Positions 3,347 to 53,300 of a stretch of 64,000 nucleotides of DNA are shown one piece after another (position 1 is the first letter of the stretch; each line of letters begins with the position of its first letter). Below the pieces are notes generated by a model that was not told the origin of the DNA, made no database searches, and worked only from the letters and a program-made list of their open reading frames with translations. The stretch comes from Geosiphon pyriformis uo1 (taxonomy: Eukaryota; Fungi; Glomeromycota): positions 397,669 to 461,668 of the forward strand of contig JAAOMT010000503.1 of assembly GCA_016748015.1 (NCBI GenBank). The letters are read 5' to 3'. The translations under genes were made by a program, and so were the position numbers.

Positions 3347-3838
3347 AAATAATTATTAATTATATAAGTAATCAAATCAGAGTTTTAAATTATTCTAAGT
3401 TCTAAATTATTATTAATTATATGAATAATTAAGTTAGAATTTTAAATTGTTCTAAGTTTTAAATTATTATTAATCTTATAAATAATTAAGTCAGAATTTC
3501 AAATTGTTTCAAGTTCTAAATTATTATTAATTATATAAATAATCAAGTTAGAGTTTCAAATTGTCTCAAGTTCTAAATTATTATTGATTATATAAATAAT
3601 TAAATTAGAGTTTTGAATTGTTCCAAGTTTTAAATTATTATTAATTGTATAAATAATTAAGTTAAAGTTTTAAATTGTCTTAAGTTCTAAATTATTATTA
3701 ATTATATGAATAATTAAGTTAGAGTTTTGAATTGTTTCAAGCTTTAAATTATTATTAATTGTATAAGTAATCAAATTAGAGTTTTAAATTGTTTTAAGTT
3801 TTAATTTAATATCAATTATATAAATAATCAAGTCAAAT
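3347..3838. repeat. 57-bp tandem repeat, about 8.5 diverged copies
   Basis: AAATTATTAT recurs at 3404, 3461, 3518 and onward (period 57). Unit is roughly AAATTATTATTAATTATATAAATAATCAAGTTAGAGTTTTAAATTGTTCTAAGTTCT. Confidence 0.93.
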
Positions 3839-3901
3839 TTTTGGATCAGTTTTATCTAATTAGAGTTTTAATTATACTTTTTTTTGTTTTTTAATTTTAT
3901 C

Positions 3902-4633
3902 ATGTCTAATAGCAAAAAACATACTATCTTTTTAGCTTATATTCCATAAAGTTATAAAAATGCTACACTTTATAATAAGCTTATAATGCTTAATTAATAT
4001 TATACAAATGATAAAAACCAATCAAAAACTGCAAAACATTTTAAAAAAAACAGTTTTCTATATATAAAATAGTATTTAATTTTGGCTTGGATCAAAGATA
4101 AACCAAATTTTTGTTCATAAGCAAATATAATATATGACTTAACTAATAAGTATATATGCATAGTATGTAATCCTAACTTTAATAAAGCATTTGTTATTTT
4201 TGTTTAAAAAGCAAAATTACATAAAATAATACTTATTAGAAATATAATTCGAGCTGTTGGCATAAAGTTTTATAATCAATTGGATATTTTAGAAAATAAG
4301 CACCAAAAACTATTTAATAATTGGCTTAAGAGCTTTAAAAATCATATTAAATTGCATTTACTTTACTTTCATAGTAATGTATCATCAGCCAATATTAAAC
4401 ATATTAAAGATAAATAAATATATGTAATAATACTTCTTGTTAATTAGAAATTATGTAATATTTTTAACATAGATAAAACTGTATTATTTTATATTATATT
4501 ACCAAATTAAGATCTTACTACAATATTATATTATGACACCAAACAATTAAAAGTGTGACTAATATTTGCTTTTACAATTAATACTAATAAAATTAAGTGT
4601 TTGTCATCATTTATTATTGATTATGCTAAATGT
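3902..4633 (+). pseudogene. pogo/Tigger-type transposase fossil, N-terminal half (CENP-B-type HTH and first DDE Asp region)
   Basis: Hand translation gives NNWLKSFKNH (cf. SNGWLxxFKxR), IFNIDKTVLFY (cf. IFNMDETGLFY) and FAFTINTNKIKCLSSFIIDYAK (cf. NADGxEKLPPLxIGK). Cut by Gypsy A. Confidence 0.8.
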
Positions 4634-5606
4634 TGTTACTGGAGGTTTTTGGTCTTTTTTTTTGAATGTTGTTAATGTTAATTTGCTGTGAATTCACATT
4701 TCCAGGAAGTAGTTGGACTTCCAGTAACTGAATTTATTTTCAAATTATCTCCTATAATTTGAACTGCTGGACTTATAAGTAGAATGGCCAATTTCTTGCC
4801 AGTTACTTTATGTAGTTATGTTGTAATAAATGTCAACTCTTTTCCAGAAATTGCTCATCTGGAAGCTCACTAAAAATGTGTAGTTACTTTGCTGTAAAAG
4901 TCAACTCTTCTACAGGAATTTCATCTGTAGACTACCCAAATAATTATAATAAGAAAAAAAAAGAAATATAAAAGAAATATAAAAGAAATAGAATTCTGTC
5001 AAGGGAAACGTTTTCTATCCAGGCCTAGAGTCACTAACAGTTTATTGAAATTGGTAGCTAATCAATTTCAAAACATTAGTTGTGTTAAGGAAATTTCAAG
5101 TGTAATAATTTAAGAATTTGGTTTTCGAATATTTAATTTTTATTTGATTTTGTAAAAAGGTGATTTGTTTCAATTAAGATATCTAAAGTAGGATGCTATG
5201 GTAAGATACTATGAGAAGATATATTTTCCTGAAAAGAGAAGCTTTTCTTTTATACAACTTGTTGTAGTACTATTTTTTGAACTTGCACTTTTCTTTTTTC
5301 TTCAATTTGGATGAACTAAAGATATATTTCGGCAAATTTACAAGTTATTTCACTGAACTATTGATTATTTCGGCAAATTTTCATTAATTTCGGCGAATTT
5401 TGGCTATGTTAAATGGTTTAGGGTATTGTGTAATTTGATCATCTTAATTTCTAGAGTACAAATTGGATTATTGATTGAGTAATAATATTTGATAATTTGA
5501 TTAAATAATAAGTAATACTCGAAATAATAATAATATATGCTACTTAATAATAGGAATTATAAAGGTAATTTCATGCTAATTAATAGCTAAAATTCCACTA
5601 ATAACA
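4634..5606 (-). repeat. Gypsy A 3' LTR
   Basis: Direct repeat of 13555-14527; preceded on the element strand by PPT GAGGAGGAAATTA (5619-5607). Confidence 0.96.
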
Positions 5607-6294
5607 TAATTTCCTCCTCAAGACTGAGCTCTGTTGAAGTCCAAGTACTATCTGTGATATTTAGATAGTGGTCCAAAATAATTGAAGTGATCTGATCTGA
5701 AAATTGTTGAAATTTCAGTTCTGTGAGTTTTCCAATGTATTGAATCTTTATTGGATGGAGTATTGAATTTTGTAGAATATTTTCACAAGTGTTGAATAAA
5801 TCATAGAGTCTAAATGCTGCTCTAAGTTTGTAGCAAGTGTTTGTTGGTCCGGCTGCTATTTTGAATTCATTATAAATTTGTTTCTGTATAGTTTCAGGAG
5901 TGATGTTGGTTGCTTCAAGTTCTAGTTTTCGTTCATAAAGTGTTTTTCCAATATGAAAATATCTATATATAAGGATATGTTCATTGTTCTGTCTATTAAG
6001 GAATAGTAGAAGTTTTTGTTGCATTGTGACATTTGGTGGAATGTCAATAGAAGCAATTAAAAGATTTTCTTTTAGTGCTTGCTTCAAAAGTTCTGGTAAC
6101 CTATTTCCAAAGTAACCTCTTGTTTTTTTTCTATAAGGGTAATAGTTTTGAGAAATATTTACTATTGGGGCTGTGGTTTCTTTCTGAATGTAATTAATTT
6201 GACTTCTATTAATTGTTATAAATAAGTCAAGAAGTGTTTTCAAAGTTAACATTAATTTTTGGGATATTTGTTGAATATTTCGGAGAATAATTAT
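5587..6294 (-). CDS. Gypsy A ORF3 (unknown ~235-aa protein; start codon decayed ATG>ATA)
   Basis: Open frame 5587-6252 extends to ATA at 6294. Same length (708 nt) as, and closely similar to, C ORF3 at 40383-41090. Confidence 0.8.
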   Translation of the reverse strand: MIILRNIQQISQKLMLTLKTLLDLFITINRSQINYIQKETTAPIVNISQNYYPYRKKTRGYFGNRLPELLKQALKENLLIASIDIPPNVTMQQKLLLFLNRQNNEHILIYRYFHIGKTLYERKLELEATNITPETIQKQIYNEFKIAAGPTNTCYKLRAAFRLYDLFNTCENILQNSILHPIKIQYIGKLTELKFQQFSDQITSIILDHYLNITDSTWTSTELSLEEEIMLLVEF

Positions 6295-18271: not shown

Positions 18272-18907
18272 TTAATATTGAGCTCCATTGAAATCTTTGT
18301 TTTGAATTAATTCCAATACTTCTTTTTCAAGTATTGTTTGTTTGACTCTATTTCTTATGTCTTCTACTTGTGTATTGTTTATTCTTCCCCATTGGTTAAT
18401 GGTTATGGTTTCCATGTCAAAGTGTAACAGTATTTCTGAATAGTTTCAAAATATGTTGTATAGTTAGTACATTGTTTTAACATGTAGTGTTGAATTCATT
18501 TTCTTTCCAGTAAATTCTTCAATTTGTTGTATTATGGCTTGGTTGAATATTTTCTTGGATTTGTTGATATACAATTTCTGAATATTCAACTTCCGACCTA
18601 ACTGGTAGTAACAGTATGATATTGGAAGTTGTTCTGTTTATTGCTTCCAATTCTCTTTTGTAAGTTCTTCTGTTGGTGCCATAATAGGTATTTTTCCAAA
18701 AGTATTCTTTACTTTTTCTATTATGTTATCTGACCAGTTTTTATCATTCTTTGGTAATCGCTAATATAGTGTATTCTTTGTCTTTCTTTTGGTGTTTTGA
18801 TAGCAAATTGTTTGGTTGTTAACAATAATTTCCATGTCCAGAGGTTGTTGACTTAAGGCCTAAGATAATTGTTAAGCTATGGTGTAGATATGATCTGGTA
18901 TTTCTAT
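18272..18907 (-). pseudogene. Gypsy B ORF3 homologue
   Basis: Hand translation (I/M)EIPDHIYTIA*QLS*AL...LPISYCYYQLGRKLNIQKLY...DFNGAQY* aligns with D ORF3 FPINYCYY*LGKHLNIQTLY...DFDRAQS*. Confidence 0.8.
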
Positions 18908-30018: not shown

Positions 30019-30634
30019 GTAATCTTATTTGGAGAATTGTTACTTGTAACATTAGAGATATAAATGTTCTTGTTAAACAAGACAACATTATTTGATGGCA
30101 TAGAGATATAAACAATTTGGTTTCGATCTTCACAGAGACTAAGTTAAAGGATAAGGCTTGCCCATGGTTGGCTTCCAAATTTGATGGTGTTCCTGTTTTC
30201 TCTTCTGGTTTGAACTCTGGCTATGTGGGCATTGGTGTGGCAATTGTTATGAACAACTCTTTGGCCAAACATGTGTGTAATGTTTCTAAGGTTTCGAGTC
30301 ATCTTCTTTTCATCAGATTACTTTTCAAGAATAAACTTTTGGTTTTGATTTTGGGGCTCTATGCTGGTGTCTCTCTGACTGTTTGGTTTTCTCAGACAGC
30401 TGAGATCAATTCTCTAATCATAAAAACTGTAAATAAATCTTTTTTTGTTATCCTTGGTGGTGATTTTAATGAGGATAGTTCACATAAGTGTGCTAGTTTC
30501 AGGAAATGCCATGATTTGGGGTTAATCAATTCTTTGGGTGTGGGCCCTTTGGCTAAGCAACTGACATGGAACAATTCTCGGGGCATTGTAAAGATAATTG
30601 ATTATGTGTTTGTTTCTTCAAATTTGGCTAACGC
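30015..30634 (+). pseudogene. LINE copy 2 ORF2, APE endonuclease part
   Basis: IVTCNIR, IFTETKL, GVAIV, ILGGDFN, TWNNS..IDYVFVS motifs. Confidence 0.9.
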
Positions 30635-31508
30635 TGTTACAGGATGGTTTTTTTGTTATATTTAATTGCTGATATCCTGTTTTAATTGCAATCAGTCTTT
30701 TGTGAGTTCCTCAATTCTATTTGTGTGATAATGTCACTATTATACTGAAAGCTTTCTTTTTAATGTTGTGATATAAGTTATTCTTCGATTCCTGATTGTT
30801 GTGTGTGTTTATGTACTTCTTTTCAGAGGCTAAACTGAAATCTACCCACTGTCTGGGGTCTTCTCTAAGGCTATTTTTGCAATTGCCTAATGTGTTTCTC
30901 TAATCTAAAAACACAGAATGTTAATAGTCTTTAGCATTTTTTCTAATTCTTACAATAAAGCTTTTATCAATTAGTAACAATGTGAATAATCTTGATCAAA
31001 AATTATTCTTTCAAGAGATTCAGCTGATGAATAATAGTTTTATTCAATAAATAATACAAGTAAGTTTCTTAATACTTTGAGTTGTGATAATTCAGTTTTA
31101 AATATTCTTTTTCATTTCTTTTTGATTTAAAGGTTTCTTGGGATATTTAATTTGAAAGTACGATTTAAAGTGGAGTTTGTTGGATAAAATTGGATCTATT
31201 GCTTGATAAGTTATGATTTTTATTACTTGATTGTCTTTTCCCAATATTAAAGCTACTGTATATATACATGTTTGTAGTTCTACGAGAAAACACATTGTAA
31301 TACTTTCTTTTTGATATTTCAATCTGGTGTTTGCTGCTATTACCAGTTGGTGTTGGCTGCTATTGTGAATTGGTGCTTGCCATTATCACAAAATGGTGTT
31401 TGCTACTATGTTAATTATTACCTTTCTAAAATTATTACTGCACTATATTATGATTGAATAGTTTGTATTATTTTTATGATTTTTTTGCTAAATTCTTAAA
31501 CCATAACA
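30635..31508 (-). repeat. Gypsy D 3' LTR
   Basis: TGTTAC...ATAACA; direct repeat of 49450-50323. Confidence 0.96.
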
Positions 31509-31521
31509 TTATTCCCTCCTT

Positions 31522-32120
31522 TCAAGATTGAGCTCTGTCGAAATCGAAGTTAATTTCTTCATTAAATTCTAAGTTACTATAATGATTCAATACTGTGTTA
31601 TTAATTTGTTGTTGTAATTCTTAAAATTGCGAGTTGGTAAGTCGTCCAATACTGTTGGTTGTTATTATGTTCATGGTTGGGTCCAACAATAGTTTGTGAC
31701 AGTTTTCAAATGCTTTGAAAATTCTGTAAACTGTTTTTGAATGGAATATAGTGTTGGTTTTTTCAATAAAAGATTCTAATAGTTGGATAGTTGTTTTGTC
31801 AAACACTCTAGTTGAGTCTTTTGAGTATAATGTTTGTATGTTCAAGTGCTTTCCTAGTTAATAATAACAGTAATTAATTGGAAATTTCATTTTCAAGTTG
31901 CTAAATGTGTCTGGTGTTAATTCACTTATTTCTATTTCTTCCATTATTAATGTATTGCCCAATGTTATCTCTAATTTTTCAATAACTTTACTGATAAATT
32001 TGTTGTTATATTTGGTAATATTATATGATTCAAAATTATGTTCTTTTTTTGTTTTTGGATTTTCTATTGTTTTTTTTATGTATGTTATTTTGGAGCTATT
32101 AACTGTGATTTTCAGATCGG
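31522..32120 (-). pseudogene. Gypsy D ORF3, C-terminal part (N-terminal part at 42090-42163)
   Basis: Removing C rejoins MILIPENINNITQQLIESLQQLKS|DLKITVNSSKITYIKK, homologous to C ORF3 MIIPQNIQKIFQKLMLALKTLSDLFITINGSQIKYIQK. Confidence 0.85.
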
Positions 32121-33113
32121 TGTTACCAGTAGAATTTTAGCTATTAATTAGCATGAAATTACCCTTATAATTTCTATAATTCATTAGTATATTAATATCA
32201 TTTCAAATTATCATTTATTATTTAATCAATTATTACATATCACGATTCAATTAAAATAATTTAATTAGTATAACAAAAAGTAAGATGATCAAATTACACA
32301 ATACCCTGAACTTTGTAACATTCAAAAATTCGCCGAAATTTACAGAAATTTGCTGAAATTTATAAGAAATTTGCCAAAATTATGAATAGTTCACCCAAAT
32401 TAATTAATAGTTCAGCAAAATAACTTGTAGTTCATCAAAATGTATCTTTAGTTTGCTGGAATTTGGGCAAAAAAGAAAAAGTGCAAGTTCATAAACTAGT
32501 ACTACAACAAGTTGTATAAAAGAAAAGCTTTTCTCTTTTGGAAAATGTATCTTATTTTAGATTTATCTCTTAAAACCGTTCCTATATACACAAAAAGAAA
32601 TAAATATCAAATAATTCGAAAAAACCAAATTCTTTAATTATTGTACTTGGAAAATCCCCAAAACCCAACTAACATTTCGAAATTGATTAGCTACCAATTT
32701 CAGTAAACTGTTAGTGACTCCAGGTCTGGATAGAAAATATTTCTCTTGACAAAATTCTATTTCTTTTACATTTCTTTTATTTTCCTTTTCTTTTCTTATT
32801 ACAATTATTAGGGTAGCCTACAAACAAGATTCCTGTAGAAGAGTTGACTTTCACAGCAAAGTAACTATACATTTTAGTGAGCTTCCAGATGAGCAATTTC
32901 TGGGAAAGAGTTGACGTTTACTACAACGTAACTACATAAAGTAACTGGCAAAGAATTGGCCATTCCACTTATAAGCCCAGCAGTTCAAATTATAGGAGAT
33001 AATTTGAAGATAAATTTAGTTATTGGAGGTTCAACTACTTCCTGAAAATGTGAATTCACAGCAAATCAACATTACCAACATTTAAGAAAAGAGACCAAAA
33101 ATCTCCAGTAACA
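32121..33113 (+). repeat. Gypsy C 5' LTR (993 bp)
   Basis: TGTTAC...GTAACA; near-identical to 41071-42089. Confidence 0.97.
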
Positions 33114-33115
33114 TT

Positions 33116-33131
33116 TGGTGCTCTCCCACGG
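33116..33131 (+). promoter_or_regulatory. Gypsy C primer-binding site TGGTGCTCTCCCACGG
   Basis: TGG 2 nt after the LTR; shares TGGTGCTCTC with family B. Confidence 0.85.
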
Positions 33132-33158
33132 AAATAACACAGCAACAACAAATTCAAA

Positions 33159-36100
33159 GTGGCGACCACACCAGACACAGCAACTCTAGAGTATTACCAG
33201 TCAATTTACACCCACTGCAAGCAAAGATTCAACATTTCAGACGGAATTGAAATTGTAAAGAAATCAGTATACCAATACATTGAAAACCGCATCAACAATT
33301 ATCTTTTTGGAAACTACAACATTTCAGAAGTTAGAAGCAACCTCTACAATAATTTAGTGCATTATTCACATTTGGGAACAGAAGACCTGAACAGTGAAAC
33401 ACTTGCTACCTACTTCCAAGAACTTAATTTTAATATTATTAAGCATTGTGAAGAAAAATACCCAGTACAGTCTAAATACTCTTTTGACTTTGAATCAGAG
33501 ACAGAAACAAGCAATAAAGGCAAACAAAGATTAAAGCAATACTCAAAAACCACTCCAAACACTCCAACACTACAAAAGACAACTGCCAAACACTTGCAAA
33601 CACCTGAACAAGGAACCAGTGTCAAATTACCACTTTCTATTACACTATTTCCAATTTCACTTGTTCAACCACAAACACCAAGTTTACCACTTAGCCATTT
33701 TTCCAGACTAGAAGATTTTCAGTCACCTAGAAATTCTACTCAACAGCAGGAACCAATATTAACAAGTGCCAATATCATTGATTACTTACAGGAAAACGAA
33801 AGTAATCACTCAGAAAGCTTGGAAAGTAAAGAAACTGAATCAGAACCAGAAGAAATTCCAGAAAACGAAGAAGAAATGGCAACTGCTTACATTGCAAAAA
33901 TCCCAAAATTTACTGGTAAAGACAATGATACCAGTCCCCAAAAATGGCTTGACAAAGTTCAAAAAGCAGGAGATGCAAATGGTTGGGTTGCAGCAAGAAT
34001 GCTCAAAGCAATTCCCTACTTTCTCCAAGGAACAGCAGGAGAATGGTTTAAAAATTTAGAAGAACCATTTGAAAACTGGCAAGCATTCAAAGATGCTTTT
34101 CTACAACAATTCATCGACAACAATACCTCTATCACTCTCAGAAACCATTTTCACAATATCAAACAAGAAACATCTGAATCTGTTATAATCTATTTTGAAA
34201 GATTTAACAAACTTCTCAGATGAATCTGACAATTGGAAACCAATGACTACTATTCTGATGCTCAAATTCTGGATCAGTTTATAGCAGGGTTAAAAGACAA
34301 ACTGATTAAAAAAGTCCATCCACATGCTCCAGCAAACTTAGCAACTGCTATTAGACATGCAAAGAGCTATGAAATGGCAATGGAAGAAGCAAATCACACC
34401 AAGCTTGTAAACCTTGCAATTAGAGAAACCAGCTCAGCAACTAAAAAGAAGATAGACCAACTCACAAAAAAAGTTGAAAGCTACTTCACAAACCAATAAC
34501 AACAACAACAACAACCACAAAGATATCAACTCCCACAATGATGCAACCAAAACAATTTTGGATCATTATCCAACAACCAATCTCAAAATTGTTATTATTG
34601 TGGAATTCCAGGGCATTGGAAACGAGATTGTAGGAAATTACAAAGAGACCAACAAAACAGGAGTAATCAACATTACTCTTCACCACAACAATCTTATTAC
34701 CAATCTCCACTACCAACTTATTATTCACCAAGACCACAAAATCAAAACAGTTACTATTCACCAGCTCCACAATTAATGCAGCAACAATATCAGCAATCTT
34801 TACCAATTCAGCCATATCAGACACCACCCATTCAACAATATCAAGTACCAGCAAGAAGATTGGTTCAACATAACCAATCCACACCCCAAAATCAATTGCA
34901 AAATAACCACAACAGAATCAATCCAAATAACCAGTTGGTTCCCCGAAATTCAGGCCAGCAAAGACCCAATTACTATCACACTCAACCCAGTTATCTTACA
35001 ATACCAGAAGAATCGGATTTTTAACAAACTGCACTTTCTGAAGGTAAAATTGCAGCACCAAGATCAAACTCTTCCAACCACACTATTTGCCCAGCTCAAA
35101 TTGCCCAAAATGCTAATCTGTTAGATATATTTCCATTTGAATTTAAGGCAAATAAATCACCATTTTTGCTTAGTAATGCAGCAGTCAATGAACAGAAAGC
35201 AATTACTGCCATGTACACAGAAGCTACAGTGGAAGGAAAACCCATTCCCTTAATCTTAGATAGTAGATCAGCTGGAAGTATCATCACTTACCAGCTGATG
35301 TAACAACTCAAACAAAACATAGACAGACCAGCTCAAACAGTTATTGTTACAGCTGATGGTATGAAGAAGACTCCAGTAGGAGAAATTGATGATTTCTCTT
35401 TTTCAATTGATGGAATCACCATTCCAGTTAAAGTTCTTGTTATGGATGCACCCCAATACCAAACTCTAGTCAGAAATGATTGGCTTCTCAAAGCCAATGC
35501 AAACCTGAACTGGGAAACTTAAGAACTTAAAATCTCATACCAAAGACAATATACCATAGTACCTGCAACCTATGGTACCTTTAACAAACAATCAGAAAAA
35601 GCTCCAGTATTTGAATTTGAAGAGGAGAAAAAAATGCCACTTACTGAAACCTACATGGCTCTTGAATCAACATCCAATTGGGCTGAAGAAACCAAACAAG
35701 AGATTTTCGAAGAATCAAGGGGATGGAAAAAAGTTAGATATTCTACACCAGAACCACAGAAACAACCACTCTATATTCTACTCAAATGCAAAGATTGCAA
35801 CAAAAAACTTTCATCAATGGAAGCATGTATTTTTCCAGAAAAGGAATATAAAACTCATATCTGTTATTTTTGCAAAGCATACCATAGAGAACGATTTGGA
35901 TCTCCAAAAAGAAGTGGAAAATGGGACAACACACCTTGCCTTACATGTGAAGAAATACTACCAGAAGAATGCAATTGGATTGATGTAGCAATGAAAGAAG
36001 GAGTATGTGATCAAACCTGTCAATATGCTCTATCAATTTTGGAAAAAGTCAGAAGAGGGACACCATTTAATGCAGCATACAACAGTGCTCTTAATAAACT

Positions 36101-38796
36101 TTACCACTACCCTCATGATGCTGAAATGATTTTTGACTTAGCAATGGCATTAATCAATGGAGCCACTCAAGAAGATATTCGCCAAATGAAAGAAGCTGAA
36201 TATATTGAGTACACCATGGAATTAGCTGGATTTGATTATGAAGATGAAGTAGAAACCTACTACCAAATTGCAAGCCACACATATCTGACCAAAGAAGCTC
36301 AAATTCAACGATTAGAGCAAATGAACATTCAATTGTGTGAAGAATGTATTATGCCTTGTGATGACCAATAGTGTTTAGAATGTTATGTTCTTAGCATTCC
36401 TCTGCCAGATGAGAATGATGAAAATAAAATCGAATTTGGAGTATCTGAACAAGTAGAAGAACTACTAACCACTCCCATCTATCTTCTTGAAAAGCAACTA
36501 CCTCTACAACTTAAATATTTTGACAACCATGGCCAAAGAATCAGACCAGAAAAAGCACATGAAATTGATGCTGGATATGACCTAAGATACCCAGGAAAAG
36601 ATACTTTAATTCTTCAACCAAAGTCTTTGACAAAAATCAATCTAAAAATTGCTCTTGAAATTCCACCAGGAGCAATGGTTCAAATTGCCTCCAGATTATC
36701 ATTGGCAAGCAAAGGAATCAATATTAGAGGAGAAGTTATAGATGCAGAATACACTGGAGACATTACCATCATGTTACAGAATGAAACAGACAAACCATTC
36801 AAAATTGAACATGCTAAAAAAATTGCTCAAGCAATTTACTTACCCTTAATCAACATTTCGGGTTTACAATCAGTAAACAACAGAGAACAATTGGGAAAAA
36901 GTGAAAGAGGAACTCAAGGTTTTGGTTTAACTGGACGATTTACAGTTCCAGTAAACATAGTTCTTAATACACAAAATGAATTTCACCAGATTCTTCAACT
37001 TCCTCAGCCAATTACCATTTCACCTTTTGGAGAACATCACGAAATTTACACTTGCTCAAAACTCACCACTACACAACAAATCTTTGAATCCAATGAACAA
37101 ATCTGTTTGAAGCATGAAATATCAATTCCAAACGTTTATATTCCCAAAGGAATGAAAAAATTTCGAGTTACATTCTACAACCCCAATAATTACCCTATTG
37201 TTTTATTAAACAAATTAGAAATTGGAATCATACACAGCAATATCTTTCAAGATGAAAACCCTCAAATTGTCTCTAATTTTATCGAAATTATAAAGCACAC
37301 TCTATTCCCAAATCCAAATATCATTCCCACTACTGAAAACTACTACTTGTTGGAAGAAAAACTCTCTTGAATCAATATGAGTCTCTTAGAACCTCAACAA
37401 CAAAGACAATTGAAACAATTGATAGCTGAATTTGCAGATATATTTGCAAAAGACAACAATGACTTGGGAAAAACAGACATTGTTCAACATCAGATCCATA
37501 CAGGAGATGCTCTACCAAAACGTCAACAAGCTTATCGAGTGCCACCTGCCAGCCACCAATTTATCAGAGAAGAGGTCCAAAGAATGCTTAATAACGGATT
37601 GATACAACCATTAAGAAGTCTTTGGGCCTCACCAGTAGTTTTGGTTAAAAAGAAAAACGGAAAAATTAGATTCTGTGTTGATTATAGACAACTGAATAGT
37701 GTTACAATTGGAGATGCCTACCCTCTTCCAAGAATTGATGACATGCTAGATGCTCTGGGAAAAGCTAAGTTCTTTTCAACTTTAGACCTGGAAAGTGGAT
37801 ACTGGCAAGTCGAAATAGACCCAAAAGATAGACCCAAAAGATAGACCCAAAACAGCATTCACCACTCAAGGAGGAAATTATGAGTTTAATGTTATGCCTT
37901 TTGAACTCTGCAATGCACCAGCAACATTTCAGCGACTCATGGATGTTGTCTATGAAGGGCTCTTGTGGCAATCAGTAGTTGTTTATCTTGATGATACTGA
38001 TGTATACTCACCAAGCTTTGAAGCCCATCTCATTCACTTGCAAGAAGTTTTTCAACAATTACAGAAAGCAGGATTAAAGTTAAATATTGAGAAATGTCAC
38101 TTTGGAAAAACAAGTTTGATCTTTCTTGGACACATAGTTAGTAAAGATAGAATCAAACCAAATCCAGGAACAATCAATGCTGTCAAAAACTTTCAAACCC
38201 CCAGAAATACTACAGAACTAAAAGGATTTGTGGGATTAGCCTCTTACTATCGAAAATTCATAAAAAAATTCTCAGAAATTGCCAAACCACTCAATTATCT
38301 TATCAACAAAAATGTACCATACAAATGGACTGAAGAACAACAAAAAGCTTTTGAAATTCTCAAAACAAAATTGACAACAGCCCCAGTTCTTGCTTACCCA
38401 GACTTCAACAAACAATTCCAATTAGCAATTGATGCCTCACATATAGCATTTGGTGCCATCTTATTACAATTGAATGAAAATGGCCAAGAACAAGTTATTG
38501 CCTATGCCAGCAGAACACTCAAGCCAACAGAACTCAAATATGGCTCAACTGAATTAGAAGCTGCTGCAGTTATCTGGGCTCTTAAACATTTTTAACAATA
38601 TCTGAAAAATGGAAAAGAATTTGACATAATAACAGACAACATTGGCCTCAAATGGCTCAATAAAAAGAAAACTGAACAAAGTGCCAAACAGTCTCAATGA
38701 AATGACTTCCTAGCAGACTACAGATATATTGTACACCACAAACCAGAAAAACTACATATCAATGTTGATAGCCTCTCAAGAATAAGACAAGATTAG
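33159..38796 (+). pseudogene. Gypsy C single-frame gag-PR-Cys-rich-dUTPase-RT-RNase H polyprotein (~1870 codons)
   Basis: Fragments starting at 33159, 34233, 34776, 35634, 36627 and 37377 share one frame; the only net shift is a 13-bp duplication in 37815-37853. CYYCGIPGHWKRDC at 34590; LILDS; VYLDD; ends DSLSRIRQD*. Confidence 0.94.
36500..36935 (+). pseudogene. dut: dUTPase domain in Gypsy C polyprotein
   Basis: DAGYDLRY, ASRLSLA, GEVIDAEYTG, KIAQAI, RGTQGFGLTG. Confidence 0.94.
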
Positions 38797-38853
38797 TACC
38801 AACAACAATTTCACCACAACTTACCAACTTACCAACAAAATAACCAAACAAGA

Positions 38854-40239
38854 ATAGATCCCAGAAACTACAGCAATCTTAAAAATTATTTGGAGACCCT
38901 TACCATGCCAGAAAACTGGTCTCCAAATGAAAAACACCGCTTATAACACCAATCAAAACAATATTTCATACACCAGAACAAAATCTATTATAAAAATCAC
39001 AGAAAACCAAACCAGCCACTCAGATTAGTACAAGAGAATGAAAAAGAAACAATTTTATACAACATACACACAGATCTGTCTTCAGCACACTTGGGAAAAG
39101 AGAAAACAATTTAAAGAACCCTTGAACATTATTTTTGGCCTCACATGCAAAAAGACATTTAACAATATGTAGAATCTTGTAATAACTGCCAAAAAAGAGG
39201 AGAAACTTGCCCCACAGAACCTTTAAATTCAATCAAAGTTGGACAACCTTTTGACAGAGTTGGAATTGATTTAGTCAGACCATTACCTATCACAACCCAA
39301 GAAAATCATTATATTGTAGTTGCAGTAGATTATTTTACTAAATGGCCTGAAGCTAGAGCCATCCAAAGAGCAGATGCAAAATCAGTAGCAAAATTCATCT
39401 ATGAAGACATTATCTGTAGACATGGATGCCCAATTGAACTCTTATCTAATCAAGGAACACATTTTGTGAACAACTTGATACAAAAAATTTGTGAACGGTT
39501 CAATGTCAAAAGACCTCTATCATCACTTTATCGCCCTTAAACAAATGGACTTGTAAAACATTTCAACAGAACATTGTGTGAATCTTTAGCCAAAGTTTCA
39601 ACAGACTTTGAACAGGAATGGGATATCTTTATTCCATCAGTGTTACTAGCATACAGAACACTAAAACAAGATACTATGAAACACACACCATTTGATCTTA
39701 CTTATGGAAGGACAGCAACATTACCAATTAATTTCACAGTGGAAACATACCCAGTGCAACCAATCAATGAAGAAAACTTTCAAGAAACACTCCAAAGAAG
39801 AGCCTACACTCTTCTTAGTACACTGGAAGAAAAAAGAAGAATAGCAGCAGCTCATATTGAACATTTCCAAGCTCAACAAAAAGAAAGACATGACAACAAA
39901 TTACCATTTATTACCAATGAATTTAAAGTTGGAAATAAAGTTTTCTTACACAGAACTAAGGCTGAAAAACAATGGAGTGGAAAATTTGAAAACAAATAGG
40001 ATGGACCATTTTATATTCACGAAATTCTAAGCAATGGATCATATAAGTTAAGACTTGATGACAAAATATTAGCAAAAGTTGCACATGGAGACAAACTGAA
40101 ACACTATTATTCCAGAAACAATCCTGAACCATTAATTCCACAAATTAGTACACATTCCCCTTTAATTAATCCTGAAGATATTCCCCGAAATTTAGAACCA
40201 ATAATTATAATAAAACAACAACCAAACTTGAACACTTAA
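38854..40239 (+). pseudogene. Gypsy C integrase, separate ORF (start ATA, probably decayed ATG)
   Basis: HTDLSSAHLG...CNNCQ, VGIDLV, LSNQGTHF, NGLVKHFN, DGPFYIH; no chromodomain. Confidence 0.88.
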
Positions 40240-40382
40240 ATTTTACAATAATTCTCTACTAAAAACACAAAGACAAAAATAGTAAATAATTACAAAACAC
40301 CCAAACCCAAAAACAAATAAAAACCCCATATCCAAAAAATAATTTTCTTTATTTTCTCTTTTCATAATTAGTCAATTTTATC

Positions 40383-41090
40383 ATGATTATTCCCCAAAAT
40401 ATTCAAAAAATATTCCAAAAATTAATGTTAGCCTTGAAAACACTCTCTGACTTATTTATAACAATTAATGGAAGTCAAATTAAATACATTCAGAAAGAAA
40501 CCACAGCCCCAGTAGCAAATCATTTACAGAACTATCACCCCTATAAAAGAGAAACAAGAAGTCACTTTGAGAATAGATTACCAAGACTTTTAAAGCAGGC
40601 ACTAGAAGAAAATCTGCTAATTGCCCCTATTGACATTTCACCAAATGCTACAATGCAACAAAAACTACTACTACTTCTTAATGAACAGAACAATAAACAC
40701 ACCTCTATCTATAAATACTTTCAAATTGGAAAAACACTTTATGAACGAAAACTGGAACTTGAAGCAACAAATCTCACTCCTGAAGTTATACAAAAACAAA
40801 TCTACAATGAATTCAAAACAGCAGCTGGACCAACAAACACTCGCTACAAACTTAGAGCAGCTTTTAGACTCTATGACTTGTTTAATACTTGTGAAAATGT
40901 TCTACAAAATCCAATACTGCAATCAATAAAAGTCCAATACATTGGCAAACTCACAGAACTGAAATTTCAACAATTTTCAGACCAGATTACTTCAATCATT
41001 TTAGATCACTATCTCAATATTACAGATAGTGCTTGGACTTCAACAGAATTCAGTCTTGAGGAAGAGATTATGTTACCAGTAGAATTTTAG
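40383..41090 (+). CDS. Gypsy C ORF3, intact 235-aa protein of unknown function
   Basis: Open ATG-to-TAG frame that reads through the PPT and 20 bp into the 3' LTR; homologues in A, B and D. Confidence 0.85.
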   Translation: MIIPQNIQKIFQKLMLALKTLSDLFITINGSQIKYIQKETTAPVANHLQNYHPYKRETRSHFENRLPRLLKQALEENLLIAPIDISPNATMQQKLLLLLNEQNNKHTSIYKYFQIGKTLYERKLELEATNLTPEVIQKQIYNEFKTAAGPTNTRYKLRAAFRLYDLFNTCENVLQNPILQSIKVQYIGKLTELKFQQFSDQITSIILDHYLNITDSAWTSTEFSLEEEIMLPVEF

Positions 41091-42089
41091 CTATTAATTA
41101 GCATGAAATTACTCTTATAATTTCTATAATTCATTAGTATATTAATATCATTTCAAATTATCATTTATTATTTAATCAATTATTACATATCACGATTCAA
41201 TTAAAATAATCTAATTAGTATAACAGAAAGTAAGATGATCAAATTACACAATACCCTGAACTTTGTAACATTCAAAAATTCGCCGAAATTTACAGAAATT
41301 TGCCGAAATTTATAAGAAATTTGCCGAAATTATGAATATAAGAAATTTGCCGAAATTATGAATAGTTCACCCAAATTAATCAATAGTTCAGCAAAATAAC
41401 TTGTAGTTCATCAAAATGTATCTTTAGTTTGCCGGAATTTGGGCAAAAAAGAAAAAGTGCAAGTTCATAAACTAGTATTACAACAAGTTGTATAAAAGAA
41501 AAGCTTTTCTCTTTTGAAAAATGTATCTTATTTTAGATTTATTTCTTAAAACCATTCCTATACACACAAAAAGAAATAAATATTAAATAATTCGAAAAAA
41601 CCAAATTTTTTAATTATTGTACTTGGAAAATTCCCAAAACCCAACTAACATTTCGAAATTGATTAGCTACCAATTTCAGTAAACTGTTAATGACTCCAGG
41701 CCTGGATAGAAAACGTTTCTCTTGACAAAATTTTATTTCTTTTACATTTCTTTTATTTTCCTTTTCTTTTCTTATTACAATCATTAGAGTAGTCTACAGA
41801 CAAGATTCCTGTAGAAGAGTTGACTTTCACAGCAAAGTAACTATACATTTTAGTGAGCTTCTAGACAAGCAATTTCTGGGAAAGAGTTGACATTTACTAC
41901 AATGTAACTACATAAAGTAACTGGCAATGAATTGGCCATTCCACTTATAAGCCCAGCAGTTCAAATTATAGGAGATAATTTGAAGATAAATTTAGTTATT
42001 GGAGATTCAACTACTTCCTGAAAACGTGAATTCACAGCAAATCAATATTATCAACATTTAAGAAAAGAGACCAAAAACCTCCGGTAACA
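41071..42089 (+). repeat. Gypsy C 3' LTR (1019 bp)
   Basis: Equals the 5' LTR plus one extra 26-bp TATAAGAAATTTGCCGAAATTATGAA unit. Confidence 0.97.
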
Positions 42090-42247
42090 TCGGATTTTAA
42101 TTGTTGTAAGCTTTCAATTAATTGTTGAGTTATATTGTTGATGTTTTCTGGAATAAGTATCATTGTTTTAATTTTGACTGCTATTTTGGAATCTTTTGCA
42201 TGTGGTTTTATGGTTGTTAAATCATTTTTGCTGTAATCTAAGATTAA

Positions 42248-43656: not shown

Positions 43657-46600
43657 TTATGTGTGTCTCATTCTTAACAAACAGTCAGTATTAGCATTTT
43701 TGGTACCTTCTTTGTATTTGATAATATAATTGTATGGTGCTAACATTTGTGATCATTTGGTGTATTTTTTTTTTAGCACTTTCTTGTTATTTAATCAGAC
43801 CAGACCTCTATGATCTGTGGTAATCTCAAAGGGTTGGTACCATAAATATGTGTCAAAGTAAACACAACTCCAGACTACTGCTAAGCATTTAAGTTTATGT
43901 GCTGCATAGTTTTGTTCTGTCATACTGAAACTTCTGCTGGCATAAATGATTACATGTTCTCTTTCATTATCATCTTTTTGTGACAGAATGGCTCCAAGTC
44001 CAGTTCCAGAAACATCTGTGGCCAAAATAAATTTCTTGTTAAAATTCGAATAGATTATTATTGGTAATTCAATGAGCTTTTGTTTAAGGTACTCAAAAGC
44101 TTTTTGTTATGCTTTAGTCCATTCAAATTTCACATTTTTGAATAGTAAGTAATTAAGAGGTTTGGTGATATTTGAAAAGTTTTTTACAAAGCAGCAGTAG
44201 TAAGATGCAAGTCCTAAAAAGCTTCTAACTTCTGAAACATTTTGAGATACTGGAAAATTTTTCACTTTGGCTATTTTTGATGGATCTGGTTTTATTTCAT
44301 TTTTTCTAACTATGTGTCCTAAAAATGCTAGCTCATTTTTTCCAAAGAAACATTTTTTTAGATTTAGTTTAAGTCCAGTGTGTTTCAATCTCTCAAAAAC
44401 TTGTTGTAAATGTTGGAGATGATCTGTGAATTTTGACGAGAAAACATTTGTATTATCCAAGTAAACAACAACAAATTGCCATAGAATTCCAGAGTAAATT
44501 ACGTCCATTAGTCTTTGGAATGTCACAGGAGTGTTTGTTAATTCAAATGGCATTATATTGAACTCATAATTGCCATTTTGTGTTGTAAATGCTGTTTTAT
44601 GCCTGTCCTTTGGGTCCATTTCCACTTGCCAATACTCACTAGTCAAGTCCAGTGTAGAAAACCATTTTGCTCCTCCAAAAACATCGAAGATTTTGTCAAT
44701 TAACAGTATTGGATATGAGTTTTTGGTTGTTTTGCTGTTTAGTTTGCAATAGTTAATGCAAAATTTAATTTTTCCATTCTTTTTTCTTACTAAAACAACT
44801 GGTGAGGACCATGGGGTCATTGATGGTTGGATTATTTCTTTTTCCAACATGCTTTGGACTTTTTCTCTGATAAAATTATGCTTCATTGGTGGAACATGGT
44901 AAGCACGTTGTTTTTTAGGTCTGGTGTCTCCAGTGGGGATTTGGTGTTGAATTAAGTTGGTTCTTCCAAATTTGTCATTTCATGAAAATATATTAGAGTA
45001 TTTTAAAATTAATACTTTTAATTGTTGCTGTTGGTCAGGATCTATTGTTTTAATGTTTAATTTGGCCAATTCTTCTGGCATAAATTGATAGTATTCTAAT
45101 AGTTGTTGCCAATTTATTGAAGTGAGTTTACAGTAGAGAGCAATTTCTAAGAAATTTAGAATTTTTTGTGGTGTTGACGTGTTTTCTAGCTCCGTTCTGA
45201 GATATCCAATGATAGTATCTTCCTGAATGTAGATGGGTTCTTCTGTGGTGTTTGTGATAGAAATTTTTATTCATTGAGCTTTATCAGCTGGAATAAAAAG
45301 GTTAGTAAGTCCTATAAGAAACTGTTGGCAAGTTTCTGGGTAGGATTCAAATATTAGGTCTTTTTCTTTAATTGTCCTTTTTATTTTTATTTCTGATTTT
45401 CCATATAGTAAGAGTGTAATAGACTGCTCATTTTTAATTACTTTGTCTTTTTCCTCTATTGTTTTAGTAAAATTCGCTTCAATTCCTTTTTCTGTTGATC
45501 CGAAATCAAAAGTTTTTCTTGTTGTTTGTGACAATTCTTCACAATTTTCTACTGGCACAAATTTTCCAATTTTTACCAATGGTAGAAAAATTGCTTGTGC
45601 AATTTTTTCCTTAGATTCAATGGTATAAGGCTTTTCTGAATTGTTCTATAGCAAAACCATTAAATTTCCAGTGTATCTGAAGTCAATTACTCCTTCTTAA
45701 ACACTTATTTTTTTTTTCATGAGGCTTGATCATGACGCTATTTAAACTATTATTCCTGGTGGAATTTCAACTGCTATTTTTAGGTCAATTTTGGTGATGC
45801 TCCTGGATGGTAACGTTGTGGATTGGTCTTTTGGATAACATAGATCGAATCTGGCATCAGTTGGATGGGCTCTTTCAGGTATTATTCCTAAGTGCCCATC
45901 ATCAAAGTATCAGATGTTGATCACCTGTTCTAGGTTGGTATAGGCCACAAATTTTTCTGATTCGGAACTGTCAGGTGAGTTTTGTTGATTTATTGATTGA
46001 TTTTGAGACTGCTGATTCTCAATTTCCATTTTTTTTTTAAGTCCCTTTCATCTCAACACTTTTCACAGCACTGATTTTGGCACAGGATAAGACAGTTTTC
46101 GTAGAGGTAAGTGTTGATTTGGATGAGGTATTGTTCTTACTCTTGTCGAGTAGGACATAGTTGTTGATAGTAGTTCTGGAATTTGTCCACTGAATCGAAC
46201 ATGTTGTAGCTGACAACTTTGTCAGCTACTTCGGCTGACTCTTTCCAGTGTCGTATTTCTTCAGTGGTTCCTCCTCTTACTTTGGCTTGTGCAGTGTTGT
46301 ACAACTCATTCTCGTCATGTGGGTAGTGCTATAGTCTTTTTAATGCTCTGTTGAATGCTGCTTCAAATGGCATTTCTCCTCTTATCCAGTTACAGATGAG
46401 GATCGTATATTGGCAAGTTGCATCACACATTCTTCCTCTGCCTGGTATGTCATTCCAGTCATACTCTCTTGGTAACAGTTCTTTACAAGCAAGGCACGGT
46501 TCCTTGTCTCATTTTCCATGTCTTTCTGGGTAACTGTATTTTTTTTTATTACAACGGTTACAATAGTAGTGAGTGGAGTTTCTTGGGTCTTTGTTTGGTA

Positions 46601-49367
46601 CACTGCACACAGTCATAGATGAGAGTTTCTTCTTGCAAACCGAGCATTCTAACTTTGGTCTGTGTTGCTGGTGGTTTCTTCATAGACTTACCTGGTTTCA
46701 TTCGGATCTTTCTTCACTGATCCATGTTGATACAACTGGTAGTTCTGTTCTTTGGTCATTAGCCCAAGAGAGCTGATAGGTTTCGATGGCTGGTAGTGCT
46801 GGATTTTTCTCAAATTCGAAGGTAGGTCTTTGGTTGGCACTGGGTTTTTGGAAGTGGCCACAGGTGGCTGAAATTCTGGCCTGGTGGCTATTATAATTGA
46901 TCAAAAGCTCTTGGGTGGTCCAGTTTAGAGTGGCATTGGCTTTTGTTAACCAGTTATTTCCTACTAACACTTGATATTGTGTAGTGTTCATTACTAATAC
47001 TTTTGTAGATATTACTATGCCATTAATTTCGAAAGAGAATGAGTCGATTTCACCATAAAACAGCTTTGTACTTTCATTGGCTGTTATGATTTGGGATGTC
47101 GTGGCATGATCAACTTTGAAACCTAGTTGGTTTACTAGTTGAAGTATTACAATGCTTCCAATGGATCCGCTGTCTAAGATAAGTTTAATTGAGGTATTGT
47201 TTATAGTGGCTTCTGTATATATAGTAGTGATTGGGCATTTTTTGTCCAATGCTGCTCTACTGAACATAGTTTTGTTTTTCTCTAATTCAAAAAGAAAAAT
47301 AGCTGCGAGGCTGCTATTTTCGGTGGTAACTGCTGGTGGTATTGTCTGGCTCAATTTTTTGGAGGAATTTTTGGTTCTGTTTATGTTTCTACCATCATTG
47401 TTTTCAATGATTAGATTTTCTGGTATATTAAGATAAGTTTGTTGATAATTTTGGTAGTTTAGATTGGTTTGCTGATTGGTTCCAATATGGTTTGGATTCC
47501 TCTGGACCAATGCGTTCTGGTTCTACATGGGCTGATTTCAGGCCTCGGGATGCCAATATGGGTTGGTTATTATGGGCTGTTGCTGGTAAGTTTCTTGATT
47601 TTGATATGTGGTAAGATATTGGCGTGGTATTGGCGTGTACTGGTTTTTGGACATTTGGGATGGCATGTAGTAATTATTTTCACATGTTTTCTGCATTATT
47701 TGCATTCAACATTGACTAATCAAATGTTCTATGTATTTGCAAAAATAGCAGACATGCATTTCTGTTCTGAATTCCTAATGTGACGAGTGATTATTTTGAC
47801 TGTTGCTAACTTCCTGACTGTGTCTTTAGAGTGGTTGGTATGTATTTCTTCTTGGATCCAGGATAAGGTAACTTTCTATTTTCTTAGAGAGTTCCTTCCT
47901 TAATTGCATTACTCTTTTCTTTAATGTTTCTGTCTTATTTTTCTTCATTACTATGTTAACTATTTGATTATGGTTAGCTTTTTTCTCAGCCAATTCAAGG
48001 GCTCTGGCGAGCGTAACGGTTTCTGGTAAGGAATTAGGATAGGCAGGGCGTACTCTTCCTAAAATACTGCTTTTTAATCCTCTAATAAACTGATTTAAAA
48101 CCTGAGAATCAGTGTAGTATCTTTGTTCAATCACTTTAATCTGATGGCAAATTCAATTGAATCAAGCAAGATATTGGGTGAGAGTTTTACTAGTATTTTG
48201 CTTGATAGTATTGAATTTGTTCTGTAGTTGGATTATGGCATTTGGGTTGCTAAAATACTCCAGGAGTGCATTTTTAAATTTGGCGAAGCTCGTGGGTTTT
48301 GTTTCCAGACTTTGATATCACAAGTCGGCTGTGCCTTTCAGGAAGAAAGATAATGTTTGAATTGCTCTTTGGTTGTTCCAGTTATTTGTTTGGATGGCTT
48401 TTTGTGTTTCTCTAAGCCACATGTGCATGTCCGTTTCTTCTTCTTCTCCTGAGAAATCTGTTAGTCTTGTAATATATGATGTGGCCATTTTGTTGCCATT
48501 TTCTGCTGGTGGGCTTATTGGTCTAAGAGGAGGTGGGATGATATTTCCTTGAGCATTCCTAAAGGTGGCTTCCTTTATATCTGGTTTTTTCTCTTGATCA
48601 TGAGTTTTTTGGTTTCTGGACTGGCTGCTTATTCCAGTGACTGGTCTTGTAATTGTTTTTTCACTGGTTTCTTTTTTGGATTCTAATTCTGATTCCTCTT
48701 CTTGGTTTTCAAACCCCATTTCGAATTTTGGCTGAAAAAAAGGGTTTTGGAATAGTGATGAATATCCTCTTGTAATTGGTATGTCTCCTCAGTTACGTTG
48801 TTTAATTTTATCAGTATAACTAAGAGTTCTTGGCATTTGTGGAGTTGATGTTGATGATAATGCAGCTCCTAATGGAATTTGTATCTTATTTTCTGGTGAA
48901 AAATGGTATGATTTATCTTCTAGTGAATAAATACGTTGTTTTTTTATTGATTGAGTGACAGTTTTCTTTGGTGTTTGAGCAGGTGTTCCTAGTTTTTGCT
49001 GGTTACTTTCCTGATTAATTTCTGAATTTTTTTTGGTTTTGTTGGCACATTCCCTAGTGTTTCCTGTGGATATTGGAAAATTTTTGTTGGCATATTGCTT
49101 AATTTTTCGATGAATTTTGACAATAGTTGCGGCTATTACTGCTACTTTTTTTGTAGTGTATTGTGATAATTCTCTATACAATCCAAGTTTTGTGTCATGT
49201 GGTTCTTCTTCCTTTCCTATATGATAATTTATTCTGGCATTGATATAATAAGTGAGAACAGATTCTGCTGGACAACACTCTTCTGGTAATTCAAGATCAC
49301 TTTGATTTTGTGTGTAAATAGCATGGCAGAATTCAAGAACAGTAAGGTTAAGGGTTTTTGTCACCAC
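43657..49367 (-). pseudogene. Gypsy D gag-PR-Cys-rich-dUTPase-RT-RNase H polyprotein, fragmented
   Basis: GTG start; CYFCKYIEHLISQC; LILDSGS; ERAHPTDARFDL...VIDFRYTG...KIAQAI...FGSTE dUTPase (~45490-45920); VYLDN; ATDVSGTGLGAILSQ. Ends DCLLRMRHT*. Confidence 0.92.
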
Positions 49368-49449
49368 TTTTGTCTCTTCCTTTTTAGCAATGAATTATTG
49401 CTAATTATTATTTCCTTTTTGATTTTCTTTCCTCATAGAGTTCACCAAA

Positions 49450-50323: not shown

Positions 50324-53300
50324 ACGCGATGTTGAATCACTATGTGGTTGAAGTTAGTGAACACTTTGACACTGACCACAAGGCTGTTTCTGTAAACATA
50401 GGCCTGGGTGGTTTGTTGGATGTGAGGCTCTCATCACTGCACAGGTAGACAAACAAAGATCATTGGAAGTTTAATGTCAACAATATTAGTAAGACCAAAT
50501 GAAATGAGTTTAAGGGTGCCTCAGTTGCCAATGCTGCTATGTTTTTGGAAGCATTTGTTGTGGCTAATAGGCTCTCAGATTTGGATGCTATGTGGGATGT
50601 TATTTGCAAGGTTGTGATTTTCTCGGCCAATAAAGTGCTCAAGAAGAGGTGGTTCAGAGGGTTTGATAACATTTTCACTAAAGAGTTTTCTAGGTTTCAT
50701 AAACTTGAATTGTTAGTGTCTAAGTTGGTGAAAGCTTCCCATTTGGTTTTTAGTAACATCTTCGCTTTGCTCTTGGATACTTGGGTCGGACTTGATCCTA
50801 AAGATGCTTCTATGACAAGTTCTCTCTTTCTGTTTGGTTCTGATTTTGATTTTATTCATATAGTGCTGGCTAAAGCAAAAAAATCTTATTGTTCTGCAAA
50901 ATTGTTGGAATCCAAGTATGCTGAAGAGTCTCAAATCAAGCAAGCTATTGAGAGGAAAATAGAGAGTTTTGAATTTGACAAAGGCCATACTATCAAAAGT
51001 GTTTTGGAATAGCCCTTTCATAGAGTAATATTGGATTATTTGGTTACAAGCAATGATTTGGTCCTGGAGCCTGATTTGGTTAAATCTAAGGTGGATGATA
51101 TTATGGAGGGTTGGACTTGAAAGCATGTGGTGGTGTTTGATATCTCTGATAATTAGGTGCACCAGTTTCAGTCTTTAGACTATGTTTTTGATGGTGTCTT
51201 TTCTAGTGTGATGTGTTTAATTGGCTTTGCTGAGATGTTTGGTGTTATTTCAGATTTGCCCAATGGAAAGGCAGCTGGTCTTTCTGGTATCAGTAATGAG
51301 TTGTGGAAGCATTATGACAAATCAGTTTTAGATATGCTTGTGGTGCTCTTGAATTCATGCTTGGATTGTAAATTAGTACCTGGGCCTTAGAGGGAGGCTT
51401 GGGTTTCGATGATTCCTAAACCATATGAATGGGAGGGTGTTTTCACAAATACATGTCCTATTGCTTTGATCAAAATGGTGTTACCAAATGAAATTAGGGA
51501 TATTATTTAACATAAAATTATCTTATAATTTCTATCATTAATTAGCATATATTATCGTTTCAAATTATTACTTATTACATTAGCAAAAATGTCTGAAATT
51601 ATTATTTAATTAATAACCCAAATTGTACACAACATAAATGTAACCTAATTGCAATGATTAATCATGCAATACCCTGAACTATGTAATATTCAAAAGTTTG
51701 CTGAAATTTGTAGAAATTTGCTGAAATAATTGATAGTTCACCGAAATATCTAATAGTTCGCGGAAATAACTTGTAGTTCACCAAAATGTATCTTTAGTTT
51801 AGCAAAATTGTAGAAAATAGCAAAGTTCAAGTTCATAGAATAGTGTTACGACAAGTTGTATAAAAGAAGAGCTTCTCTTTTCGAGAAAATGTATCTTGCT
51901 TTAGATTTATCACTTAGAACCACTCCTACACATACAAAAAAAAATAAATATAAAATAATTCGAAAAACCAAAAACTTTTTAATTATTGCATTTGAAAAAT
52001 TCTCAAAACTCAACTAACATTTTGAAATTGATTAGCTACCAATTTCAATAAACTGTTAATAACTCCAGGCCTGGATTGAAAATGTTTTCCTTAACAGAAT
52101 TCTATTTCTTTTACATTTTTTTATTTTCTTTTTTTCTTACTATAATCATTAGGGTAGTCTACAGATGAGATTCCTGTAGAAGAGTTGACTTTCACAGCAA
52201 AGTAACTACACATTTTTTTGTAAGCTTCCAGACAAGCATTTCCTGGGAAAGAGTTGACGTTTACTACAATGTAACTACATAAAGCAACTGGCACGGAATT
52301 GGCCATTCTACTTATAAGCCCAGCAGTTCAAATTATAGGAGATAATTTGAAGATAAATTCAGTTACTGGAGGTTCAACCATATCCAGAAAATGTAAATTT
52401 ACAGCAAACAAACATCGACAACATTTAAAAAAAGAGACCAAAAACCTCTGATAACAACAGTCCACAAGATTCTTTCAGACAGAATCTCTTCAGCATACAG
52501 TGCATTTGATGTTTTACATGAGAACAATTTTTCTGTTTTGAAGGGTACAACTATGTAGTCACTTATTTTTGCCATTGGTTCTGTTGTTGAAGATGCATTA
52601 AAAAAGAACCGAAAACTATGGCTGGTTTTGCAAGATATGCATAAGGTGTATGATTCTGTTGGTTGGAAACATCTCGAAAGGAGCCTAATTAGAATCAAGA
52701 TATGTGATAAGTTCATAAGATTTTTTGGTAGCATTCACAATGGTTGCTATAACAGGGTTATGATGGATTTTGGCTTGTCTGATGGTTATTGTGTTCATGA
52801 TAGTTTGGATTAAGGAGAGGTTTTTTCACCACTTTTTTGGCACATATTTTATGATCCACTATTATGTGAGATCAAAAAGCAGGAAAGTGTGTGTGGCTAC
52901 AGATTGAATTCTTATTTTATTTCCAAAACTGGCTGGGCTGAATCTTAGGCTGGGCTGACTTCATTTTTAGCTGTCAGTGCTTTTGTCAATGATACAATTT
53001 GGGTTGGTAGCAGCCAGGCTGCTATGCAATACATTCTCAATGTTGCTAGTGATTTTTTTAGGTTCAATAACATTTCAATTAATAATAACAAGACTGTAGC
53101 CATTCTTATCAACTGTTGAGTAGCAAGTCCCTATCTGACTATTAGTGGGTTACCTATTTCCATTGCCAAAAAAGAGGAGTCTCATTGTTATCTGGATATA
53201 TTTCTATCTTCTGAGAGTCTTTCGAAGTTCAGTCTGGTGAAGACTCATTCAGACATTTGTTTTTTTGTCAATTTTGTTCTTAAGAAGACTGTGTTAGATA

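Follow-up and report, generated by a model that had tools for sequence, protein, structure and literature searches.

Sense-oriented extra open reading frames (ORFs) between pol and the 3' long terminal repeat (LTR) are a known kind of retrotransposon gene, as described in PMC7264820, and the extra genes that LTR retrotransposons carry in this env slot are mostly unexplained. According to PMC13524379, gypsy Env combines a signal peptide, an ectodomain and an anchor, and a furin site is not always retained in gB-type Env; other captured ORFs are described in rotifer elements (PMC5408684). The gene described here, ORF3, occupies the env slot of A1, a retrotransposon of the fungus Geosiphon pyriformis uo1, within a 64,000-nt stretch of contig JAAOMT010000503.1 (positions 397,669 to 461,668; hereafter the window, whose numbering is used throughout). 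ORF3 is under purifying selection similar to that acting on reverse transcriptase (RT)/RNase H, and its sequence indicates a soluble product that lacks membrane features and is not Env.

In A1, ORF3 starts 143 nt past the integrase stop codon (40237-40239), spans the polypurine tract and ends 20 nt into the 3' LTR. Given the local base composition, the chance of 235 consecutive stop-free codons is approximately 3e-8. The gene and its parts, including the predicted local distance difference test (pLDDT) and predicted template modelling (pTM) scores of the model, are as follows.

40343..40371, plus strand: pyrimidine tract with TAATTAG, its end 11 nt upstream of the ATG; a possible splice acceptor
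40383..41090, plus strand: intact ORF3 of A1, ATG to stop, 235 aa, no internal stops
40383..40493, plus strand: N-terminal segment (aa 1-37), modelled with low confidence as a helix plus a beta-hairpin; conserved across families
40521..40559, plus strand: [RKH]x2-5PY motif (aa 47-54) with a basic patch in a variable linker; candidate nuclear-import signal by the consensus of PMC2408616
40566..41027, plus strand: predicted all-helical core (aa 62-215; pLDDT 86.8, pTM 0.81) with a three-helix unit at about aa 103-167
41058..41067, plus strand: polypurine tract, within ORF3

The window holds four full elements, A1, A2, B and C; A1 and A2 share 85% DNA identity and form one family, so that the four elements represent three families. 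A preliminary description, drawn from the sequence, had placed an ORF between integrase and the polypurine tract in all three families, and ORF3 indeed lies in this slot in sense orientation in all four elements (235 codons in A1, 211 in B), as well as in the metagenome locus L001. The remaining window copies are listed below.

5587..6294, minus strand: ORF3 of A2, 81% identical to A1 ORF3; stop-free, with ATG reading ATA
18272..18907, minus strand: ORF3 of B, 211 codons with six stops
42090..42163, minus strand: ORF3 of C, 5' piece, severed by the A1 insertion
31522..32118, minus strand: ORF3 of C, 3' piece, with two TAA stops (31860, 31623)

The stop-free window copies are therefore A1 and A2 only, both of family A; the earlier statement that the frame is open in A and C holds for A and fails for C, which is interrupted by its two stops and by the 10-kb insertion. 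Outside the window, the Geosiphon annotation includes intact or near-intact copies of B and C (P0131; P0142, P0143). For two further lineages, D and E, the position of ORF3 can be inferred from gene models that fuse the integrase tail to ORF3 pieces. All four motif blocks noted earlier are present in the alignments: IPQNIQKIFQKL, IPENINNITQQL and IPDHIYTIAxQL in block 1; SDLFITIN and LDMEIIVN in block 2; YKYFQIGKTL, YCYYQLGRKL and YCYYxLGKHL in block 3; and GKLT, GRIN and GRLT in block 4. Between intact database copies, identity is 27% over 227 aa for A and C, 22% over 100 aa for A and B, and 32% over 217 aa for B and C, and it ranges from about 22 to 64% among eight ORF3 lineages (A, A', B, C, D, E, M1 and M2). 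The C-terminus tracks the tract DNA in two frames, with A, M1 and M2 reading into the LTR and B, C, D and E stopping before it.

The highest 19-residue hydropathy in nine of nine proteins is 0.27-1.31, which by this simple hydropathy test leaves no transmembrane or signal-like stretch; RxK/RR furin sites are absent from all nine, and each contains zero to three cysteines. Pfam returned no family above cut-off for the ORF3 protein, neither an Env nor an accessory family. The core is predicted to be compact and all-helical with a helix-turn-helix-like three-helix unit (aa 103-167), accompanied by a flexible linker and a small N-terminal module. A PY-type motif is present in six of seven readable lineages, within a region of pLDDT 31-44, and the basic run upstream of it is clear in B, C, M1 and M2 and weak in A. 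The consensus given in PMC2408616 for PY nuclear localization signals is R/H/Kx2-5PY in a flexible region with an upstream basic or hydrophobic motif.

The ratio of nonsynonymous to synonymous change (omega, dN/dS) was estimated from the single pair A1/A2, and its values are upper bounds because selected change is mixed with post-insertion decay. For ORF3, the NG86 estimate is 0.27, below 1 rather than near it. Since transitions dominate the differences between the two copies, a null that keeps the substitution spectrum was used, giving a corrected omega of 0.50 (p 0.002) for ORF3 and 0.38 for its aa 100-200. Elsewhere in A, the corrected values are 0.45 (RT/RNase H), 0.60 (the stretch following protease), 0.65 (dUTPase), 0.72-0.73 (gag) and 0.91 (integrase). 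Moreover, omega falls below 1 in the ORF3 coding frame only. The RNase H-integrase tree (5 rows) and the ORF3 tree (11 rows) both separate A and L001 from B and C with strong support, an agreement that amounts to one quartet because only four lineages are common to both. ORF3 branch sums are about 1.5 to 3.3 times those of RNase H/integrase; as the trees agree and the branch sums differ, ORF3 is an old gene of this clade and faster-changing than pol. Selection and trees alike mark it as conserved, not as a single captured ORF. Its protein motifs persist between lineages with pol identities of 49-57%, and no good sign was seen of the host preserving ORF3 after insertion. Together, the purifying selection, co-inheritance with pol, helical model and lack of membrane features uphold the earlier proposal of a conserved, soluble, helical accessory protein distinct from Env.

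Protein searches gave 202 matches to ORF3; every one of the 120 listed is a 'hypothetical protein' of Geosiphon pyriformis, with identities reaching 93% among those listed. Searching 1.84 billion representatives with a profile yielded 76 matches at E 0.001, all assignable to ORF3 families, and each of the 82 proteins P0123-P0204 has its nearest reference in one of the eight lineages. Ten proteins sampled for origin comprise eight from G. pyriformis and two from metagenomes (P0164, P0166), the latter full length and 28-29% identical to P0001. A metagenome scan confirmed two of 150 pattern matches, L001 and L002. L001, a soil-type metagenome contig, carries RT-RNase H-integrase, a 316-nt spacer, an intact ORF3, a polypurine tract and TGTTACC, and L002 reads integrase end, extra ORF, ORF3. 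The extra ORF (398-811) has 137 codons from stop to stop and 128 from ATG, with no Pfam match; this lineage may carry two accessory genes. For P0166, the top Atlas match (0.94, recognition 2186, 176 shared features) is a cluster of 98 members drawn mainly from Mucoromycota, a lead towards a wider ORF3 family. Many ORF3 copies in the Geosiphon annotation are recorded as hypothetical genes of the host, and the gene caller has often joined them by splicing to sequence from an LTR, gag or a long interspersed nuclear element (LINE). With more than 200 ORF3 proteins annotated in this way, naming the family cleans gene counts in mycorrhizal-type fungi.

Repeat and self-alignment analysis reveals a window densely filled with LTR retrotransposons: A1 at 32121-42089 (plus strand), A2 running 14527 to 4634, B about 27351 to 17382 and C 50323 to 30635, along with two solo A-type LTRs. 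These are Ty3/gypsy LTR retrotransposons, as established by LTR ends, primer site, polypurine tract, target duplication and domain order. The LTRs end TGTTAC...GTAACA, and both the primer site (TGGTGCTCTC) and the polypurine tract (GAGGAAGAGA) were found. The domain order is gag (with a CCHC knuckle)-protease-dUTPase-RT-RNase H-integrase, the integrase tail being a Tf2-type SH3; no chromodomain match was obtained in the integrases of these elements. Target duplications of 4 bp flank A1, A2 and C, the three insertions checked, and A1 is inserted inside the ORF3 of C, 24 codons past its start (duplication 32117-32120 and 42090-42093). LTR pairs differ by 3.5% in A1, 6.7% in A2 and 6.4% in C, nearly all by transitions. 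The remaining parts of A1 are as follows.

32121..33113, plus strand: 5' LTR, 3.5% from the 3' LTR; motif array at about 32330-32470, primer site next at 33116
33114..40239, plus strand: gag-protease-dUTPase-RT-RNase H-integrase, a single frame with 17 stops and a 13-nt insertion
41071..42089, plus strand: 3' LTR; U3 array of TT(T/C)GCCGAAAT at about 41280-41440, TATA-like box at 41490-41498

The dUTPase lies between protease and RT in A (36372-37370) and B (22268-23167) and is weak in C (45271-45645, E 0.001); a cysteine-rich stretch preceding that of A (35523-36371) matches no Pfam family. A long, helical-looking N-terminal region of gag precedes the capsid domain (33168-33880, 48792-49394), and in C this region has a PAZ_2 match below cut-off (E 0.0015). 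Additionally, the window contains non-LTR-type element fragments with RT, RNase H and zf-RVT matches (28327-30665, 50503-55366, 57224-62691 and 1-3082), with upstream ORFs giving weak RRM or KH matches, and a tandem array of 57-nt period at 3233-3916.

Ahead of a TATA-like box, the LTRs of each family contain an array of a short motif peculiar to that family. The A motif, TT(T/C)GCCGAAAT, occurs in two to six copies in five LTRs and is absent from a decayed solo LTR; the B motif, ACATTGC-TTA-GCAATGT, occurs five times in the 3' LTR and once in the shorter 5' LTR; the C motif, GCAAACACCA, occurs four times in each LTR at 23-nt spacing; and the L001 motif, TTGCCCTAGT, occurs three times. No motif occurs in the LTRs of another family, and shuffles yield at most one. 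The A array also retains CpG within a CpG-depleted element. Arrays of this sort, as candidate targets, are a requirement for a private activator, with VANC as the parallel (PMC5735166). The LTRs of A, B and C (e.g. 41735-41790) show a pyrimidine tract or TACTAAT followed by AG, like the 3' end of an intron, which suggests a spliced leader. In A-type LTRs (41760-41910), the pyrimidine tract is followed by two related hairpins, AGTT-G-ACTTT/loop/AAAGT-AACT and a changed-pair variant; A and B share a stretch AGCTT..CAGA.GAGCA.T.TCTG, and B and C share AAGGATAGCCT...AAGACCCCAAA. These hairpins and shared stretches are possible leader RNA elements.

A nuclear role of some kind is probable for ORF3. 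Its most specific form, a nuclear and family-specific activator of the element's own LTR, is put forward tentatively, at somewhat less than even chances. Expression would depend on splicing or on an internal transcription start, a separate message being proposed because ORF3 follows the pol stop, and the protein would be imported into the nucleus through the PY-type motif. There, the helix after a conserved (G/K)xTN turn, whose exposed residues vary by family, would read the U3 array of its own family, and the bound protein would activate the LTR promoter or shield it from methylation, an advantage in a host that methylates transposons. The import-like motif, the helix-turn-helix-like lead and the LTR arrays lean towards trans-activation or anti-silencing over hyphal movement. 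A bolder version is doubtful: that ORF3 is a sequence-specific anti-silencing activator co-evolving with the LTR arrays, and that its helix-turn-helix-like domain, hitherto undescribed, is a remote relative of the bacterial DUF1016 N-terminus.

Several observations weigh against the activator. Family-specific U3 repeats are common in LTRs without such a gene, host factors could bind the motifs, and LTR enhancer repeats recognized by host factors look no different. The LTRs used to count the motifs were also those from which the motifs were derived, the CpG counts are small (2-6), and no array stands ahead of ORF3, the A internal regions containing zero or one A motif. Within the protein, comparison of A1 with A2 reveals no selection on aa 1-99 (omega 0.89, p 0.36), and the isoelectric point is 8.5-9.3 in A, B and C versus 5.4-5.9 in M1 and M2, hence not consistently basic. 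The PY motif is lacking in family E (3/3 proteins) and kept in 48 of 84 near-full-length A-type copies, the others having changed mostly from P to L or S. As for the fold, the best DUF1016_N (PF17761) score is 15.0 bits against a Pfam cut-off of 32.8, picked from a scan of 24,736 families, with hhalign P 0.007-0.05 and probability 1-6%; the function of DUF1016_N is itself not established in the literature covered, and a structural match to sigma-F is level with unrelated helical bundles. No solved structure of a DUF1016_N relative was found for comparison.

A Rev- or CERV-like nuclear RNA-binding factor, made from a spliced message and exporting unspliced genomic RNA, is an unlikely reading that would draw on the same PY-type motif. 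A, B and C have intron-like tracts in their LTR leaders, which would create a need for such a factor; the repeated A-leader hairpins offer a candidate binding site, and CERV of Cer1 serves as precedent (PMC10309623). However, the acceptor-like tract directly before the ATG, present in both A copies, is evident in A only and not in B or L001; the hairpin region is no more stable when folded than shuffled sequence (z -0.85), Rfam has no match at the LTRs, and the alignments show no visible arginine-rich RNA-binding stretch.

Slimmer still are the chances of a particle or integration cofactor, a protein that travels with the virus-like particle or the integration complex and aids nuclear entry or target choice for the chromodomain-less integrase. 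Inheritance with pol, the import-like motif and an integrase tail that scores as Tf2-type SH3 only would fit such a role, as would an Atlas resemblance to closterovirus coat protein (0.93, 156-161 shared features), although these Atlas rows fall below the tool's 170-feature mark with low recognition (1880, 2186). The cofactor is further opposed by the faster change of ORF3 relative to RNase H/integrase, and by its position as a separate gene past the pol stop, which means that it is not delivered in the polyprotein.

Silencing suppressors and movement aids are often small, soluble and fast-changing, as ORF3 is, and in R. irregularis small RNAs are described as acting on transposons that are young. 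A cytoplasmic role in suppressing RNA silencing, or in helping movement through coenocytic hyphae, is nevertheless improbable: the import-like motif is conserved and suggests the nucleus, no membrane anchor is present, and aseptate hyphae pose little barrier to movement. A degenerate env, or a neutral passenger ORF held open by the cis-acting polypurine region, is largely refuted and very improbable: the env slot and the last 15-20 codons, which track conserved tract DNA in two frames, speak for it, and the absence of membrane, signal-like and furin features with few cysteines in all nine proteins, the coding-frame restriction of omega below 1 and the motifs kept despite diverged pol speak against it.

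Among known systems, foamy-virus Tas/Bel1 and retroviral Tat/Rev come from small accessory genes close to the 3' LTR and regulate expression of the element that encodes them, Tas binding poorly conserved LTR sites. No sequence similarity to them was found, and ORF3 differs in having a fungal host and an element without env; Tat and Rev are also named in PMC7264820. The literature search found no published description of the ORF3 family; repeat libraries and supplements, which were outside its scope, may contain these elements. The aORF-3S class, with the env-like genes of Athila and Bagy2, has in common with ORF3 its position, sense orientation, presence in all family copies and possible spliced expression, as described in PMC7264820; ORF3 is distinguished by its fungal setting, its lack of the transmembrane domain that some plant aORF-3S have and its lack of a Pfam match. 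CERV of the C. elegans element Cer1 is likewise a non-Env accessory of a Ty3/gypsy element, nuclear and made from a spliced message according to PMC10309623, but it acts in RNA export, the two are compared by description only, and splicing of ORF3 is putative. DUF1016_N of the YhcG family aligns colinearly and weakly with ORF3 over about 60-110 residues (Y[WF]xIGxxL ... RxxxxF ... LT), yet it is bacterial and fused to a PD-(D/E)xK nuclease, and ORF3 scores far under its cut-off. VANC of VANDAL, as described in PMC5735166, is a transposon-encoded, fast-changing protein beside family-specific repeats, as is ORF3; VANDALs are plant DNA transposons to which no sequence link was found, and VANC has demonstrated binding and demethylation, activities that are putative for ORF3. 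LTR elements make up 41.2% of the Geosiphon genome according to PMC11952901. Should the bolder version of the activator hold, ORF3 would be a private switch of the VANC or Tas type within a retrotransposon, and might help to account for an LTR coverage of about 41%. Several families have diverged in both protein and LTR motif, which allows a cross-family test for private activators against host silencing.
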